The translations under genes were made by a program, and so were the position numbers. This document shows positions 9,536-22,229 of a stretch of 24,415 nucleotides of DNA, one piece after another. The notes beneath the pieces are model-generated. The model was not told the origin of the DNA and ran no database searches. It saw nothing but the letters and a program-made list of their open reading frames with translations. Source of the stretch: a virus (taxonomy: Duplodnaviria; Heunggongvirae; Uroviricota; Caudoviricetes). Each line of letters starts with the position of its first letter. Positions within the stretch are counted from its first letter, which is position 1. The stretch spans positions 1-24,415 of the IMG/VR virus record IMGVR_UViG_3300021255_002784; one strand, written 5' to 3'.

Positions 9536-11248
9536 ATGACTATTCCAACATATTCTAGTCTGACTGCTGGCGCCGCGTCCGAAAAGTCTATGAAAATTCG
9601 TTATCCCGAATTTTGCCAATATCTCACAAAAACGTATCCGAATCTATCTTGGAGAGAGAAACTGTATTGGTACTTTCATCAGATATCAGAGTACCCTGTG
9701 TGCCCTGTGTGTGGATCGACGACCTCATTCATCAACATGAAAGAAGGCTATCGAACATATTGTTGTCGAACCTGTATGAACCGCGACCCTAACAAACAGG
9801 AGCGAACACGGATGACCTGTAACGAGAAATATGGCGGAAACGCTCCAGCTTGTTCATCAGATATTCAAAACAAGATGCATCAGACCAATATAGAACGTTA
9901 TGGGGTTGAAAATGCAATGCAAAACAAAAGTGTGTCTCAAAAATCTCATGACACAAACGTAAAAAAATACGGTGGTTGCGGAAATGCGTCTGTAGGATTA
10001 TTGGACAAGTACAAGCAAACCAATCTATCGAAATACGGCGCCGAGAACGTGATGCAAACCGAATCGGGCCGAACTCGATTAAAAGAAACATTTGTACGAA
10101 AGTATGGAGTAATTCACCCATCTCAAATAAAAGGAATTGGAGACAAAATAGCCCGATCGCGCAGAAACCACACGCTTAATAAATATGATGACGTGATATC
10201 CATTTCAGATGACGATGTTTGGATATGTAAATGTCCCCACCCTGAATGTACTAGGTGCATTGAAAAAACTTATAAGGTACATGGAAATGTATATCGAGAC
10301 CGAAAACGCGATCACACTGAACGGTGCACCAGATTACTCAAAGAGTGTAACACCAGGACTTCAGGAACATCTATCGAACTGTTTATCAGAAACATTTTGG
10401 ATGAAATCGGCGTGACTTATATATGCAATGATAAAACGATCATCTGCCCTAAAGAATTGGATTTGGTTATCCCTGACCACCATATTGCTATAGAATGTAA
10501 TGGTATTCAGTCCCATTATTATCCACACAAAGAACCTTCGTATCATTATAAAAAATATCAGGTCTGTCAAAAGAAAGGGATTCAGTTGCTTACCATATGG
10601 CAAGACCAGATTGAAAATTGTCCTGGCGTGGTTCGATCGATCATCAGGTCGAAACTGGGAATATACGATCGTCGAACATATGCCCGCAAATGTGAAGTAG
10701 TCGAACTCGAACCATCCATCTGCTGTGAATTTCTGGATAATAATCATATACAAGGCCGCACCAGTGCTAAGGTTCACTTAGGTCTGTTGTATGAAGGTGA
10801 TATAGTGTGTGTTATGACCTTTGGATCCAAACGTGGATGTTCTGGTAACAACAAGTCAACAGCAAATGAATGGGAGTTGAGTAGGTTTTGCACGATCACG
10901 AACACTCAGGTTGTGGGCGGGGCTGCTAAGTTGCTCAAATATTTTATCAGACATTATCATCCTACAACTATATATAGTTTCTCTTCAAACGACATTAGCG
11001 ATGGGGGCCTATATAAAAAGTTGGGTTTTACTGAATGTGGATCTAACCAGAGTTACTGGTACATAGACATCAGGTCCATGAAAAGATATCATCGTTCGAC
11101 ATTTACCAAAGATTCTATTGTTGATCGAGGATGGAAAGACACCAAAGACGGATGGACCGAACAAGAGGTCATGCTGGATCATGGGTACTATCAGATATAT
11201 GATTCGGGGCAAATCAAATGGGTTCTGGATTGCACTAAAATTATTTGA
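9536..11248 (+). CDS. Hef-like free-standing homing endonuclease (Zn ribbon, KYG repeats, Vsr/DUF559-like nuclease, GNAT-like C-terminus)
   Basis: CPVCG...CCRTC zinc ribbon; five T(N)xxKYG/RYG repeats; ELDLVIPDHHIAIECNGIQSH...KKYQVCQKKGIQLLTIWQD nuclease-like segment; C-terminal WELSRFC...GGAAKLLKYF...YKKLGF...IYDSGQIKW typical of Hef-like proteins in large phages. Confidence 0.75.
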   Translation: MTIPTYSSLTAGAASEKSMKIRYPEFCQYLTKTYPNLSWREKLYWYFHQISEYPVCPVCGSTTSFINMKEGYRTYCCRTCMNRDPNKQERTRMTCNEKYGGNAPACSSDIQNKMHQTNIERYGVENAMQNKSVSQKSHDTNVKKYGGCGNASVGLLDKYKQTNLSKYGAENVMQTESGRTRLKETFVRKYGVIHPSQIKGIGDKIARSRRNHTLNKYDDVISISDDDVWICKCPHPECTRCIEKTYKVHGNVYRDRKRDHTERCTRLLKECNTRTSGTSIELFIRNILDEIGVTYICNDKTIICPKELDLVIPDHHIAIECNGIQSHYYPHKEPSYHYKKYQVCQKKGIQLLTIWQDQIENCPGVVRSIIRSKLGIYDRRTYARKCEVVELEPSICCEFLDNNHIQGRTSAKVHLGLLYEGDIVCVMTFGSKRGCSGNNKSTANEWELSRFCTITNTQVVGGAAKLLKYFIRHYHPTTIYSFSSNDISDGGLYKKLGFTECGSNQSYWYIDIRSMKRYHRSTFTKDSIVDRGWKDTKDGWTEQEVMLDHGYYQIYDSGQIKWVLDCTKII

Positions 11249-13536: not shown

Positions 13537-13569
13537 AAAAAATAAGGATTACCCTTCCGGATAATCCTT
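13537..13569 (-). terminator. Intrinsic terminator of the minus-strand operon ending at 13590
   Basis: aaggatta...taatcctt stem (13544-13569) with an A-run on its left (U-run on -). Confidence 0.7.
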
Positions 13570-13589: not shown

Positions 13590-14291
13590 TCAGAACGCAG
13601 TCCAGACACCTTTTTCAGGATCCCACCACTGGTTGTTGTCGTTGGAATAAATGAAATGAACTTCATCGTCTCCAGAGGCCTTGCAAGTCTTCGAAATAAA
13701 GTTGGCTGCAGTCACTTTGTATCCGTTTCCGAGGAGGGCGTGGACAGCCTTGTCGACGTACTTCTTGTCGAAGTCCTTGTTGTGTTTAAGGATATCTTCA
13801 ACAAGTGATTCCAGTTCAGTATCTGATAGTGAATCAAGATCCAAACGTTCATCGGGTGTTTTTTCCAATGACTCATACAAGAACTCAGTTAGACTCTTCA
13901 TACGGAAACTCTCCTTGACCTTAGTAAGCTCGCGAAGCTTGTACATACAAGAATCGATAAGTCCTACCACATCATCTAAATCACTTTCGAGCTCAGGAAC
14001 TTCATTCAGTAGTTTACGGCCGGCATCACACACGGAATGAAGTTCTTCCAGGTACTCTAGTGCGTCGTATTCGTCGGCATCGAGCACGTTCTTGTAGTCA
14101 CCAACTTTCTGTTTGTTATGTCCCATGAAGTCTTCGATGAGTTTGTCGACCTTCTCGGGCATCTCTTTGTAGAACTCATCCAGGATAACGTGAACATCAT
14201 GATTGTCCGCTTTGAGGTGCTTACGCCATTCAGCTACAACACTCTGCTGAAGAGTTCCGAACAGTTCTTCTATTGATTTTATTGTCACCAT
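13590..14291 (-). CDS. Dps/ferritin-like (DUF5856-type) domain fused to a second ~100-aa domain
   Basis: KHLKADNHDVHVILDEFYKEMPEKVDKLIE contains H-x14-D-x3-E, the spacing of the Dps ferroxidase residues H63/D78/E82. The second module begins at M131 (MKSLTEFLYES). Confidence 0.65.
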   Translation of the reverse strand: MVTIKSIEELFGTLQQSVVAEWRKHLKADNHDVHVILDEFYKEMPEKVDKLIEDFMGHNKQKVGDYKNVLDADEYDALEYLEELHSVCDAGRKLLNEVPELESDLDDVVGLIDSCMYKLRELTKVKESFRMKSLTEFLYESLEKTPDERLDLDSLSDTELESLVEDILKHNKDFDKKYVDKAVHALLGNGYKVTAANFISKTCKASGDDEVHFIYSNDNNQWWDPEKGVWTAF

Positions 14292-14307
14292 GTTATATTA
14301 GTGTTTA

Positions 14308-14961
14308 TTAAAGGATGTATGCTTTGTTGTCGAAAAATCCGATGATATGAGTGCCATCACTCAAGTTGACCACGCACCAATTATTACCATAGATGTTAAC
14401 AGATTCATTCATCGCCTTGGCCATAGCGAACGGATTGTCGTTAGCACAAGAGGCAACCTCCATAATATCACCGTGACGAGAAAGGAATCGACCGTTTTGT
14501 GGAATAGCACTTTCACTGGTTACAAAAGAAGCACCGGATACCTGACAGCAGCAGTCAGGACATGCATTTACACATACTCCCCCTTTACCATCTTCCGGTC
14601 CTTTAGGCTCTTCGATCGGTTTGAGCATATAAACATTATCCCCGTTCAGTACATCATAGGTACCTACCAGATTATACCCGGACATGAAGTCACCAAAACT
14701 CCAATACCCAGACTGCCTGAAGTTGACTCCACCGTACATAGATGCATAGATGAACTGATCAAACTTGCGAGGGTCGGAAATAATATGCCCTGTAACCACT
14801 ATACGCCCATCATCAAGACGGGACATATGAGTATCTGTTGCTGCTCCGAAGGTGTTGTTGTACGCACGACATATAGGGCATTGTTCCGGTATGGTTGGAG
14901 CAATTGGTGTATAATGGAATGCGGCAACGCCTTTTGCAATAAGTTGACTAAATTTGTCCAT
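14308..14961 (-). CDS. Hypothetical Cys-rich protein
   Basis: 217 aa with CPIC and CVNACPDCCC clusters. Co-directional within the 16732->13590 operon. Confidence 0.75.
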   Translation of the reverse strand: MDKFSQLIAKGVAAFHYTPIAPTIPEQCPICRAYNNTFGAATDTHMSRLDDGRIVVTGHIISDPRKFDQFIYASMYGGVNFRQSGYWSFGDFMSGYNLVGTYDVLNGDNVYMLKPIEEPKGPEDGKGGVCVNACPDCCCQVSGASFVTSESAIPQNGRFLSRHGDIMEVASCANDNPFAMAKAMNESVNIYGNNWCVVNLSDGTHIIGFFDNKAYIL

Positions 14962-14978
14962 GTGTTACAATTGTTTAA

Positions 14979-15314
14979 TTATGCACCGAATGACTTGTTG
15001 AGCATACCTACGAGCTCACCCCATTCACCAGCTTCTACAAGATCTTTGTTGTCGTTAAGAAGACCGTCGATAGTATCTTTCATCTTCTTTTTGTCGAGTT
15101 CGTCACCGAACACCTCTTTGAACTTGTTTTCAGCATAATCGCGGAAAGTCTTTTCGTCTTTAATGGATTCGGTGGCTTTATCTGCTTCTTCAGCTTTTTT
15201 CTTTGCTTCTTTAGCATCCTTTTCGACCTTGTTCACCTTATCCTCGAGCTCTTTGATTTTTGCTTCATCAGCCTCATTCAAGTTCTCGTATAAGAAATTA
15301 GTAATGTTCTGCAT
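14979..15314 (-). CDS. Hypothetical acidic/charged helical protein, possible internal head protein
   Basis: 111 aa, E/K/A/D-rich. N-terminus MQNITNFLYENLNEA. Confidence 0.75.
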   Translation of the reverse strand: MQNITNFLYENLNEADEAKIKELEDKVNKVEKDAKEAKKKAEEADKATESIKDEKTFRDYAENKFKEVFGDELDKKKMKDTIDGLLNDNKDLVEAGEWGELVGMLNKSFGA

Positions 15315-15331
15315 ATTGATTTTTGTTTATT

Positions 15332-16732
15332 TTACCATTCTATATTTAACATTTTGGTGGCGGAGATGAGCTCCTCCATATATTCTGCTAAATCAGCATC
15401 TTTCTTGCGGCTCATATTTTCTGTAGGATACACCTCACTAAGGAAGAATACAATCATGCGTCGATTCTTACGAAGCCCAGCATTGAAGACGTCAATTCCT
15501 TTGGTTAGACAATCTAATATGAACTTGGCATCCTCAATATCTAGTTTGTCACATGCACCCAATACAGCACGTTCAAGAACTTTTTTGTCGTTCCAACGAG
15601 TGATACTCTCCAGCATCATGTAAACGTTATCATCATACAGTGCTTCCTTGATAGCACCTTTACCACATAGGGCGTGTTCCAATGCAACTGACTCTGTATA
15701 GGCATCTTTGATAGCACCAGTGATGCTAGCAGCTTTTGGATTGGTACGCAAGAACTTAAGAATCTTGCTGATGATACTGTTTTGGATATTACCATCAGAC
15801 ATACCGAATTTTTTAGCAATGTCTTTGACTTTTTGTCTCTGACCATAATAAGGTCCGAGGCCGAAATAACGGTAGAATATATCCACATCTCGAGCGGAGA
15901 ACTTGTCCTCGATCATCTTATACACTTCTTTCCATCTCTTTTCTTCTCCTTCGTAATCATGTGCACCGTCAGCGGCTCCGAGAGCTTTCAAGTGGTCCTG
16001 ATCAAAATCATCATCATTATCTCCCAGGAAACCATCCAAGGAAACTGCATCCAGCATGGCTGCACCGAAAGTCTCTTCTGCATACCAGTTGGTTCCGGAT
16101 AGGGTATGACCAACAGCATTGATCTCATCAAGAATAGCATGCTGAATAGTATAGGATGCGAATGTGCGGAATGAACTTCCTTTCTCTCGATCCCAGGTAT
16201 TCATAGCATTGACCAGACCCTCAGTACCTGCATCAATCAAGGATGGACGATCTAGACGGCTCTTACCCACGTATTGGTCTGCGATCTTATAAACAATAGG
16301 CATGTACATCTTTATAACGGCGTTACGACCAGCCGGTGTCTCCAAGTCAATAGTCATATCGCTGAGTGATGCCTGACCCGCAAGTATTTCTGCACGCTCT
16401 TTATCTGTTTGATACTGAGGAAGCATACGGATACTTTTGCCTGCTTTCTTGAGTAGCTCATGTAACTCAGAAACCTGAGCATCACTGATACTCAGTTCTT
16501 TGGCAACCTTAGCAAACTGACTCTTGTTCGCGTTGCGTATTTTGTCCAATTGATCAGCAGAAGTAAGGTTCAGACGTTGAGAAATAGCTACTATATCCTT
16601 GATGTTCTGAGGCATGACTCTGTTGACCTTACGAATATAGTTGGTTATTTCAGACTGTAACATAGCTGTTGCATTAGCATGTGCTTCGTGCAATTTTGCT
16701 TCATCAATTACTATCTGGCTAAAATTTTTCAT
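15332..16732 (-). CDS. Sigma70-family RNA polymerase sigma factor with N- and C-terminal extensions
   Basis: Region 2: YMPIVYKIADQY...SLIDAGTEGLVNAMNTWDREKGSSFRTFASYTIQHAILDEI. Region 4 HTH: FSARDVDIFYRYFGL...KVKDIAKKFGMSDGNIQNSIISKILKFLR. Start placed at MKNF (16732); the track starts at 16741. Confidence 0.85.
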   Translation of the reverse strand: MKNFSQIVIDEAKLHEAHANATAMLQSEITNYIRKVNRVMPQNIKDIVAISQRLNLTSADQLDKIRNANKSQFAKVAKELSISDAQVSELHELLKKAGKSIRMLPQYQTDKERAEILAGQASLSDMTIDLETPAGRNAVIKMYMPIVYKIADQYVGKSRLDRPSLIDAGTEGLVNAMNTWDREKGSSFRTFASYTIQHAILDEINAVGHTLSGTNWYAEETFGAAMLDAVSLDGFLGDNDDDFDQDHLKALGAADGAHDYEGEEKRWKEVYKMIEDKFSARDVDIFYRYFGLGPYYGQRQKVKDIAKKFGMSDGNIQNSIISKILKFLRTNPKAASITGAIKDAYTESVALEHALCGKGAIKEALYDDNVYMMLESITRWNDKKVLERAVLGACDKLDIEDAKFILDCLTKGIDVFNAGLRKNRRMIVFFLSEVYPTENMSRKKDADLAEYMEELISATKMLNIEW

Positions 16733-16793
16733 CGAATGCATTATATTATTACCAATAATAAGTCATGATATCTGCAAAATCAAAGGGTTACAA

Positions 16794-17261
16794 ATGATAA
16801 TATACAATTTCATCAAGTATCTGATACTGTCTATCCGGTACAATAGAATCCTTCAAAAAGTATATCAAGAAGAAGGCATCCTACAAGGTCTTTCAAAGAT
16901 GTTTGGGGTCGAGCTGAAACAGGATTGGATTGGGCGCGTATATACTGTCATCAATCCATATGTAGTCGAAGGAAAATACGATCCATCGTCCACTGTGTAT
17001 GAATTGGGCAATGACAATCCTACAGAACAAGTGGTAGAAAAGTTCATCATGGAACGTCTTAACGCCGCACGTGGTTTCATCCGAGCCAATAATCTGTTCG
17101 ATCTGTTGACATATAAAATAACACGATTAGATGATTACGATAACTACCTGTTTGTGATGTATCCTATTCCATATATTGACCTAGCCAAATGGACCAAGTG
17201 GATGATTGGACTGATATCTGTATTAGTGGTGATTGGTGTGATTTTATTGATCGTTCTCTAA
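16794..17261 (+). CDS. Hypothetical protein with C-terminal transmembrane helix
   Basis: Start placed at ATG 16794 (MIIYNFIKYL), since the track's upstream part overlaps the sigma gene. Ends in WMIGLISVLVVIGVILLIVL. Confidence 0.7.
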   Translation: MIIYNFIKYLILSIRYNRILQKVYQEEGILQGLSKMFGVELKQDWIGRVYTVINPYVVEGKYDPSSTVYELGNDNPTEQVVEKFIMERLNAARGFIRANNLFDLLTYKITRLDDYDNYLFVMYPIPYIDLAKWTKWMIGLISVLVVIGVILLIVL

Positions 17262-20357: not shown

Positions 20358-22229
20358 TTATCCTAATCCATCTTTTCCATCAACTGTTGCTGTCTTGAAT
20401 GCTTCACCATATTTCTTGGCAATGATAGACATACCGGTGCTGTAGTCAGGCATAGTGGTGCGATCTACTTTCCAAGCATTCATGAAGGCATCGAAGGCGT
20501 GAATGTTACCCCAGATCTCAGGTTTGCGATCGTTCATCTTCTTGAGGAAGAAGATATATGATTTCAAGTCGTTCAAACCAAGCGAAGCATCGCTGTCAGC
20601 TACGTCTGCTGCGAATACATTTTTGAATACATCGAGCACGTACGATGCAAGTTGTTCGTTGTTAGCCTTTACCAACCAGTTAGCCAAGGACTCGAACTCT
20701 TCTTGAGTAGGTAGTTTGTCTTTGTGTGCTGTTACTACGAGTTGTGCTAATGGTAGAGCTACGTGTACCAGATCCTTGGCATCGATTTTGAGACCTGCCC
20801 CACCATTCTGCCACGCAGACTGAACTGCTGCATCGAAGTTACCAATCCTACGGATTGTCTGAAGGAATGCCCAGAAGGCATCTACTGCTGTTGCTGGTAC
20901 GTATTTATTGAGTGTGAAGAGGATATCTTCAGCATCGAGATCAAATATATTAAATCCTTCCAACGAACCGGTATTGTGCATTTCAGCGAGATCGATCATT
21001 GCATTGGTCCAAGAACGAGGGGTGCACATGATATGGGTCATGTCTGAACCAGCCGTATCATCGCCGTTTGGATCCCAATAGAAGAACTTACCACCAGCTA
21101 GTGTTTCGCCTGCAGGCATGTCCAGCCACTGAGTAAGGAGTGGAGACATGAACCCTTGCTTATCAGCCCAAGCCCGCCAGGTCTTAGCAGTTGGTTCGTA
21201 ATAGACTTGCGCGAAACGGTTACCTAGTGCGTTACCAATGGATGACTGACCACCACGATCTTCGTCCTCGTCGCGGTTCGATGCGCATACGATAGCCCAA
21301 CCAGAACCTAATTTCCACCCGTTGAAGGTGGCTTCGTTAATCAAGGGTAGGATCACATTAAGTACTTGTTGGGTAGCACGAGACAACTCATCGATGAATA
21401 GCATACCGCGCCCACATTTGGCGTCGAGTTCTGCATCCAATTTTGCATCTCCAGTAGGACGCCATACAGGCAACCAGGTCTTTGGAACATCTTCGGCTCG
21501 ATCACCAGACTCGGTGTATTTTGGTAGCATGAAGTTTTCAGGAGTCTCGTTAGAAAGAGTCTTGGAGATAAGCGCGTAGTCTTTACCCTGCTCTGCAGAT
21601 ATCTCTGATACAACAGCATTGAGGATCGCTGTCTTTCCGATACCAGGCGCTCCCCAAATCATCAGACGAGCGGTGCGAGGGCTGGTTACGTGTTTCTTGA
21701 TCACCTGACGAAGTTTCTCATTAGTAGTGATCACATTGTACTTGGCTTGTGGATCTGTATTCGCCATCTGTACTTCATCGATCTGTTGGAATTGAGCCTT
21801 GAACTCTTCTTCATTAGACTCGCGAACTGCGCGTTTAGACAACCATTTCCACCATTCAACCGTAGAAGGATACAACTTGAGTGCACCTGTAAAGGCTTCT
21901 GTGCGACCTACCAGCTTACCCGAGGTCTTACCCAGGCTGACGAACGTGGACTTCTTATCAATCAGGCCATCATTGTATGCTTGACCAGCTGTCATCGGAG
22001 TAGAGCAGGGTAAGATGTTGCCTTCTTCATCTGTAACCATCCACCAAGTCTGTAGTTTGGCTACGATACCCTTACCCCAAGCTATCACTTGTTTAGCCAG
22101 TTTACCAAGTTTATCTTTGACTTTGCTGATGGCGTCACGAAGACCTTCGTCCACATGATTGTTCAACTCTGATTGGAGATAATCTGCAAGCGGCTGAACT
22201 CCTATAAAACTTTCTTGAATATTTCTCAT
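20358..22229 (-). CDS. MoxR-type AAA+ ATPase with a ~150-aa N-terminal extension
   Basis: Walker A WGAPGIGKT, Walker B MLFIDELSRA, sensor-I CASNR, ALGNRF arginine-finger region and TPRSW lid motif. Confidence 0.85.
   Translation of the reverse strand: MRNIQESFIGVQPLADYLQSELNNHVDEGLRDAISKVKDKLGKLAKQVIAWGKGIVAKLQTWWMVTDEEGNILPCSTPMTAGQAYNDGLIDKKSTFVSLGKTSGKLVGRTEAFTGALKLYPSTVEWWKWLSKRAVRESNEEEFKAQFQQIDEVQMANTDPQAKYNVITTNEKLRQVIKKHVTSPRTARLMIWGAPGIGKTAILNAVVSEISAEQGKDYALISKTLSNETPENFMLPKYTESGDRAEDVPKTWLPVWRPTGDAKLDAELDAKCGRGMLFIDELSRATQQVLNVILPLINEATFNGWKLGSGWAIVCASNRDEDEDRGGQSSIGNALGNRFAQVYYEPTAKTWRAWADKQGFMSPLLTQWLDMPAGETLAGGKFFYWDPNGDDTAGSDMTHIMCTPRSWTNAMIDLAEMHNTGSLEGFNIFDLDAEDILFTLNKYVPATAVDAFWAFLQTIRRIGNFDAAVQSAWQNGGAGLKIDAKDLVHVALPLAQLVVTAHKDKLPTQEEFESLANWLVKANNEQLASYVLDVFKNVFAADVADSDASLGLNDLKSYIFFLKKMNDRKPEIWGNIHAFDAFMNAWKVDRTTMPDYSTGMSIIAKKYGEAFKTATVDGKDGLG

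Follow-up and report, generated by a model that had tools for sequence, protein, structure and literature searches.

Genomic setting of the sigA operon

The IMG/VR virus record IMGVR_UViG_3300021255_002784 is a complete sequence of 197,528 bp with direct terminal repeats and represents an uncultured 197-kb phage of the gut or rumen. We studied its first 24.4 kb (24,415 nucleotides, hereafter the window) and within it a minus-strand operon of four genes, which encode a sigma factor (sigA), a 111-aa protein, a 217-aa protein and a 233-aa protein with a DUF5856 domain (Table 1). Short peptides that resemble the capsid-targeting sequence (CTS) of phage T4 had been noticed in all four proteins, and it had been proposed that they mark cargo of the phage head. 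The open reading frames (ORFs) follow in series with gaps of 16-17 nt, and a hairpin with a T-run closes them. The co-directional operon with a single terminator is therefore present as originally predicted, and each of the four quoted peptides was found at its assigned codon. ORFs outside the window are our own crude picks.

Other genes of the window specify a contractile-tail sheath, a gp23-type major capsid protein (MCP), a tube protein and a homing endonuclease. Its MCP shares 28-37% identity with those of Tenacibaculum, Chryseobacterium and Prevotella (Lak) phages and of Sphingomonas phage PAU. Shine-Dalgarno-like words are found in 4% of the genes and the leaders are A-rich; from these features and the MCP relatives we infer a Bacteroidota host. 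The homing endonuclease belongs to the large family phrog_3339, of which the genome holds two copies, one directly 3' of the MCP gene (9536-11248, plus strand) and one beside the portal gene (31338-33026, plus strand).

A megablast search of the region against 50,697 phage records gave no match, and an IMG/VR search with the sigma factor returned a single near-identical contig, which ends at residue 120. We further compared three relatives (L003, L004 and L005), whose sigma factors are 42-55% identical to that of the window. Their operons keep the gene order, with further tagged genes inserted at the same locus. The sigma gene has a divergent neighbour (16791-17261, plus strand) for a 156-aa protein whose C-terminus bears a membrane helix, a pairing that is likewise kept in the three relatives. 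The spacer between the two genes measures about 50-60 nt and carries box-like sequences on both strands.

Table 1. Features of the sigA operon and of related loci. Positions are those of the virus record, with which the numbering of the window coincides.
Feature	Coordinates	Strand	Basis or remark
Intrinsic-terminator-like hairpin, 11 pairs, with T-run, closing the operon	13544..13569	-	sequence-based
233-aa protein: DUF5856 (Dps-like) domain, tag, 91-aa variable tail	13590..14291	-	PF19174 58.4 bits, phrog_858
Internal tag MKSLTEFLYESL, codons 131-142	13866..13901	-	tag profile 23.7 bits
217-aa two-domain alpha/beta protein, untagged	14308..14961	-	tag profile -12.9
111-aa acidic helical protein, N-terminally tagged	14979..15314	-	no Pfam or PHROG match; orthologues tagged
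Tag MQNITNFLYENL of the 111-aa protein	15279..15314	-	tag profile 11.8 bits; L-Y-E at positions 8-10
Sigma factor sigA, 466 aa from ATG 16732 (in-frame upstream ATG 16741)	15332..16732	-	PF04542 (Sigma70_r2) 32.1 bits, cut-off 24, residues 143-207; phrog_351 4e-13
Sigma leader MKNFSQIVIDEAKLHE, tag-like	16685..16732	-	smoothed profile 7.9; candidate protease sites I-D-E and L-H-E
Promoter-like box CTTATTATTGG, class L	16753..16761	-	TTATTAT core; 20-29 nt 5' of the sigma start
sigB, 434 aa, RpoD-like	140917-142221	+	behind TATATAT class
sigC, 211 aa, small	155787-156422	+	behind TATATAT class
Eight consecutive tagged genes	177414-182291		5' of the protease gene
Prohead protease gene, 475 aa	183994-185421		PF03420 (Peptidase_S77) 35.7 and 34.2 bits, cut-off 27; PF20034 (S80) 29.4 bits, cut-off 23.4

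A peptide tag shared by unrelated proteins

The CTS of the T4 internal proteins IPI, IPII and IPIII was reportedly described by Mullaney and Black in 1996; its sequence MKTYQEFIAE served for comparison. A tag profile was built from regular-expression matches and scored in a strict and a smoothed version. When it was scanned over the proteome and over homologues, as had been advised for the MxxLxxFLxE peptides, a genome-wide set of about 31 tagged ORFs emerged. These 31 score between 11.8 and 29 bits and four others between 4 and 8 (35 ORFs with at least 4 bits), and nearly all hits are at ORF starts, with the consensus MK[SNDT]L-x-[EQD]-[YSF]-[IL]-x-E-[SN]-L. A simple regular expression for the tag matches 17 annotated N-termini against 0.08 expected, and 28 places overall against 0.6 (200 residue shuffles). 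The peptides of the 111-aa and DUF5856 proteins, for which the resemblance to T4 had been put forward most firmly, lie far above chance on this profile.

Without their first 15 residues, the tagged proteins are mutually unrelated (BLASTP, 1e-3) except for two paralogue pairs, which rules out a single paralogous family. Leu occupies position 4 in 30 of 31 tags and is encoded by five codons from two codon families, while Ser at position 3 is encoded by both AGY and TCN codons. The variety of Leu codons argues for selection on the peptide and not on the DNA; a DNA-level repeat or an effect of translation start is excluded by this synonymous diversity together with the internal and C-terminal copies. 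By sequence, all 31 tags contain [LIV]xE at positions 4-6 and/or 8-10. The T4 CTS itself scores 7.0 on the smoothed profile of this phage, on which the 99th percentile of 225 untagged N-termini is 2.9 and the lowest true tag scores 5.0. The tagged set totals about 6,500 residues and includes two MATCAP-like peptidases, a DUF5591 protein and a kinase/phosphatase-like protein.

According to its domain matches, the 475-aa ORF listed in Table 1 is the gene of a T4 gp21-family (S77) prohead protease. It is preceded by the array of eight tagged genes, and just one untagged 527-aa ORF stands between the array and the protease gene. In the MCP there is just one matching site, I-S-E-S-L (residues 14-18). 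The tag on some 31 unrelated proteins, the selection at the protein level, the [LIV]xE in T4 register and the gp21-family protease gene all support the interpretation of the MxxLxxFLxE peptides as T4-like capsid-targeting signals, and on balance we consider that the tag system is probably an expanded version of the T4-type leader for head-cargo targeting and protease processing.

Further tags were found away from the operon. The MATCAP-like carboxypeptidase of a RimK-like operon (131911-133119, minus strand) begins with MKSLTQYLYESF, and its neighbour (130749-131918, minus strand) with the weaker MISLAQYLHDDF. These two tail-trimming enzymes might thus be head cargo themselves, or might act on head or injected proteins. 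Internal tags with Met at their first position occur at residue 62 of a 1027-aa ORF (71910-74993, minus strand) and, after a DUF3008-like start, at residue 69 of the ORF 167701-168240 (minus strand); both ORFs are either fusions of N-domain, tag and cargo like the DUF5856 protein, or their true start is the internal Met.

In the cultured distant relative Tenacibaculum phage PTm1 (AP019524.1), the profile identified about four weak tag-like N-termini and no large tagged set, making this phage a poor stand-in. Tag-like starts of PTm1 lie at 81708, 141765 and 224211 on the plus strand (MKPLYESITEIF, MKELIKHIQESF and MKKLYDHISENL). A strict DNA pattern for the tag found no match in PTm1, and the same pattern recovers just six of the studied phage's own tags. 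Literature searches with the letters of the tag or of the T4 CTS returned nothing relevant.

Tagged and untagged partners of sigA

The 111-aa protein belongs to no Pfam or PHROG family and is a clear member of the tagged set. Its orthologues in the three relatives (47-69% identity) are all tagged, with the starts MKNITKYLYES, MIDLIDFINEQ and MKNISEFLNEC.

The last protein of the operon had been described as a Dps-like fusion, with its peptide at codon 131. The DUF5856/phrog_858 domain (residues 25-119, with 114 residues beyond it) and the internal tag MKSLTEFLYESL are both present; the tag is not the N-terminus of a second gene, as it follows the domain throughout the family. Among the best 120 of 337 homologues (132-349 aa), the domain ends in ...MYK[LV][RK]EL.E and is followed, 2-8 residues on, by [MK]SL[KST][DE][FY][LI]xE[SQ][LI]. 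More than 100 distinct sequences were inspected, and nearly all homologues carry a tag-like peptide after the domain. Its Met is frequently absent, which characterizes the peptide as a C-terminal element of the DUF5856 family and rules out the start of a fused second gene. Stand-alone DUF5856 proteins (132-147 aa) end a few residues past the tag, and others extend into DUF285 repeats, cytidylyltransferase or unknown domains.

A profile of 23 DUF5856 sequences ranked Dps chains first in the PDB with a weak E-value of 0.12, and a phmmer search of the domain against the PDB gave no meaningful match. H34, D49 and E53 are invariant and D38 is nearly so; the spacing of these four residues is presumably that of the Listeria Dps ferroxidase site. 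A Dps-like nature of the domain is plausible. Within the tag system, the 111-aa protein and the DUF5856 protein probably travel as cargo of the head.

A DUF285-repeat protein in L004 (12248-13108, plus strand) bears an N-terminal tag, and elsewhere among the relatives the same repeat domain stands behind a DUF5856 tag. With DUF285 behind either placement, the tag has the look of a joint at which cargo domains recombine. The occurrence of tags at N-termini, at internal sites and at C-termini, with variable domains behind them, suggests a portable address that is also a junction for the shuffling of cargo domains.

The peptide could also be a docking helix for some other partner, such as a phage chaperone, an AAA+ ATPase, an adaptor for timed degradation or a site at the membrane or of assembly, in which case the proteins would act inside the cell and would not be packaged. 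Such a generic binding peptide would suit the position-independent copies and the existence of tagged enzymes (the MATCAP-like peptidases and the kinase/phosphatase-like protein), and a conserved AAA-type ATPase gene with the TTATTAT box class described below lies nearby (20358-22229). Two observations also speak against head cargo of the T4 kind: most of the tagged proteins have an acidic or neutral pI (median 5.9) whereas T4 internal proteins are basic, and the internal or C-terminal position of the DUF5856 tag differs from that of the T4 signal, so that a cut behind its Glu would not free the domain from the tag. We nevertheless regard a docking helix of this kind as improbable. The peptide matches the T4 signal position by position and always holds a gp21-type [LIV]xE, a gp21-family protease is encoded with a tagged-gene array adjoining it, and the MCP N-terminus has the same I-x-E-S-L site. 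Enzymes are no obstacle to packaging either, as T4 packages enzymes such as Alt.

The 217-aa protein turned out differently from its original description. Its peptide MDKFSQLIAKGV (14961), which had been counted among the related tags, scores within the null and lacks Glu10, and a Glu at the equivalent position occurs in none of 90 homologue N-termini. The family start M(R)DKFSELI..GVA.F.YTP is conserved (130 representatives). The protein had also been called Cys-rich, but its cysteines lie outside the conserved columns of the family. A role as zinc-binding anti-sigma factor finds no support in the sequence, as a conserved H-x3-C-x2-C motif is absent and the cysteines are unconserved. Like the 111-aa protein, it matches no Pfam or PHROG family. 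Its AlphaFold2 (AF2) model has a pLDDT of 88.6, and fold searches with it (Foldseek against the PDB, wide VIA) gave no clear match, with a best Z of 5.2 over 68 residues in a generic alpha/beta arrangement.

The start M-x-x-F-S-[QE]-[LI]-[IV] is common to the 217-aa protein and the sigma factor, the only two full-length genes of the genome that have it. The remaining Phe-type start of the genome belongs to a 69-aa ORF at 117284 (MITSFKEYIAQQ), which heads a small operon with two tagged genes.

The sigma factor, its promoter-like box and its leader

The first ORF encodes a sigma factor, in agreement with its earlier identification. It consists of a leader, an N-domain of about 100 aa, region 2, an acidic linker, region 4 (PF04545, weak by sequence with 12 bits) and a C-domain of about 135 aa, and its 424 homologues have lengths of 451-479 aa. 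In Foldseek, the AF2 model computed with 59 homologues aligned along some 350 columns with group-1 sigma chains (probability 1.0, E 7e-5).

Two recurrent classes of promoter-like boxes were distinguished in the intergenic regions. The class TTATTAT(A/T)TA lies 5' of the sheath, MCP, tube, portal, head-closure, baseplate-like, fibre-like and protease genes, of several tagged genes and of sigA. In L003, L004 and L005 a TTATTAT box is likewise found 20-31 nt 5' of the sigma gene as well as 5' of the MCP, sheath and terminase genes. The second class, a hairpin, a T-run and TATATAT(T)TATACA, lies 5' of the DNA polymerase, helicase, SSB-like, polynucleotide kinase and thymidylate kinase genes and of two further sigma genes, sigB and sigC. 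Both of these lack a tag-like start, and among the three phage sigma genes just sigA combines such a start with the box of the structural genes.

Both box classes are unlike the Bacteroidota -33/-7 consensus, and a scan of the whole genome for Bacteroidota-type promoters (TTTG, 17-22 nt, TAnnTTTG) yielded six matches, none of them usefully placed. No gene for a multisubunit RNA polymerase was found in the phage genome. The clade probably comprises phages without Shine-Dalgarno sequences, RNA polymerase gene or host-type promoters that infect Bacteroidota. The TTATTAT box before sigA fits late expression, as judged by the genes that share it.

The sigma peptide had been called a looser match to the T4 signal. 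On the smoothed profile the leader MKNFSQIVIDEAKLHE lies above the null and is similar to the T4 CTS (Table 1). Moreover, 104 of 120 sigma homologues (41-87% identity) begin with M-x-x-F-[ST]-x-[IF]-[ILV]-x-E, which has [LIV]xE at positions 8-10 in the exact T4 spacing; MRNFSEFLTEAR and MNNFTDFILEAR are examples in exact T4 register. The copy in the window is off-register by one residue, and near relatives with the same leader insertion retain another [LI]-x-E further on (positions 15-17). The AF2 model shows residues 1-24 as an isolated helix that precedes the fold, with a pLDDT below 50. With its extra residue and its Phe at position 4, the copy in the window is a borderline case. The peptides are conserved in the homologues of the sigma, 111-aa and DUF5856 proteins alike, so that the lack of such conservation, which had been named as a refutation of the cargo proposal, was not observed for these three.

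A number of points weigh against sigA as head cargo. On the strict profile its leader, with its one extra residue, scores just 2.1, and the sigma homologues have a median of -0.2 on the tag profile of this genome. Phe4 is invariant in the sigma orthologues where the tags have Leu4, which may reflect a different constraint, and a conserved N-terminus is expected of any conserved protein. The TTATTAT box is also found 5' of a RimK-like operon, a homing endonuclease gene and an ATPase gene, so that it marks a class of genes and not membership in the virion. Besides, the promoter classes were defined by motif alone and the timing of either class was read from gene content. A tblastn search of the sigma factor against the 50,697 phage records found no match, and hence no cultured relative with this sigma factor.

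The off-register leader and the invariant Phe4 would suit an ordinary intracellular sigma factor, late or very late, that reads the TTATTAT boxes including its own and so acts in positive feedback, while its resemblance to the tag is only a resemblance. The N-terminal helix would then be conserved for a function in the protein, as a gate similar to region 1.1 or a partner-binding helix, for instance, and the tagged downstream genes would merely share the late transcript. Autoregulated sigma operons are common in bacteria, for example those of ECF sigma factors. Met1 is as invariant as Phe4 across the orthologues, the conservation runs unbroken into residues 11-45, and the like start of the untagged 217-aa protein hints at an operon-specific motif. 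Yet sigB and sigC, behind replication-class boxes, would be natural activators of the late class and would leave a late third sigma factor without an obvious job within the cycle. The retention of [LIV]xE at positions 8-10 in 87% of the homologues and the predicted detachment of the leader from the fold are also unfavourable to this explanation, which we rate as rather unlikely.

A proposed route of head loading

We propose that the amphipathic peptide of about 12 residues, M-K-x-L-x-E-[Y/F/S]-[I/L]-x-E-[S/N]-L, most probably attaches its proteins to the scaffolding core of the prohead during assembly. The S77 protease would then cut the tags after Glu, and the cargo would stay in the head and exit with the DNA. 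In the DUF5856 cargo the peptide would stand behind the domain, with variable extra domains joined after it. In this scheme we infer docking, cleavage, packaging, ejection, the late timing and the role of the sigma factor at early promoters.

Being the sole sigma factor with a virion-gene box and a conserved, detached tag-like leader, sigA fits a factor that the head takes up ahead of the next infection. It may be transcribed with the virion genes and, as candidate cargo, could reprogram the host RNA polymerase when the next cell is infected. That it is packaged in the virion we hold to be a real possibility, if one that falls short of an even chance. The fuller scenario, in which late-made sigA is loaded via its T4-type leader, injected, and captures the host core polymerase at time zero for the TATATAT-type early boxes, is put forward more tentatively still. 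The evidence on sigA is also compatible with an autoregulated late sigma factor whose helix just resembles the tag.

Comparison with known systems

The T4 internal proteins IPI, IPII and IPIII carry a CTS that is removed by the prohead protease gp21 (PMC3012670). In both phages an N-terminal peptide of about 10 residues is attached to otherwise unrelated, fast-evolving proteins, and the two peptides agree in register at M1, K2, a hydrophobic or aromatic residue 4, E6, an aromatic residue 7, I/L at 8 and E10, with the (I/L)-x-E end. Both genomes also encode a Peptidase_S77 protease of the gp21 family, and tagged genes cluster by the head-morphogenesis genes. The phage studied here differs from T4 in the number of tagged proteins (about 31 versus a handful), in their mostly acidic or neutral character, in Leu instead of Tyr at position 4 and in a conserved S/N-L added after Glu10. 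Its peptide is also found internally and C-terminally (DUF5856 and two other ORFs), and a sigma factor and a Dps-like protein are among the candidate cargo. Should the tag function like that of T4, the injected protein set of an abundant uncultured phage group becomes readable from sequence; in this phage it would comprise about 31 proteins, including enzymes, the Dps-like protein and possibly the sigma factor.

Encapsulins use a short, often C-terminal cargo-loading peptide that directs ferritin- or Dps-like cargo into a shell of the HK97 fold. The DUF5856 protein likewise has its tag at the C-terminal end of its putatively Dps-like domain, which we regard as an analogy only, as the tag is unrelated to the encapsulin peptide in sequence, corresponds to the T4 signal and includes a predicted protease site. 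A portable tag of this kind could serve the engineering of protein delivery by phage capsids.

Iyer et al. (2021) described polymerase-less 'group 2' jumbo phages with a gp23-type capsid and with RpoD-like and minimal sigma factors (PMC7824862). Our phage resembles them in its gp23-type capsid, the lack of a phage polymerase and its several sigma factors (two long RpoD-like ones and one small), and differs from that description in that one of the three has a structural-gene-type box and a CTS-like leader. Within the limited coverage of our literature search, no report of a packaged sigma factor was found. If sigA is indeed delivered by the virion, this would be a new way to start phage transcription, and would explain how a phage without polymerase or host-like promoters gets started.

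It would also be a pared-down counterpart of the packaged enzymes of phiKZ-like jumbo, N4 and crAss-like phages, whose virions carry a virion RNA polymerase (vRNAP; PMC7598289, PMC7824862). The logic would be the same in both cases, with a transcription protein that is made late, packed into the head and delivered by injection. Early genes with promoters foreign to the host would thereby be readable at once. The vRNAP phages, however, pack a whole RNA polymerase, whereas in the phage described here, in which no polymerase gene was found, the sigma factor alone would capture the host core enzyme.

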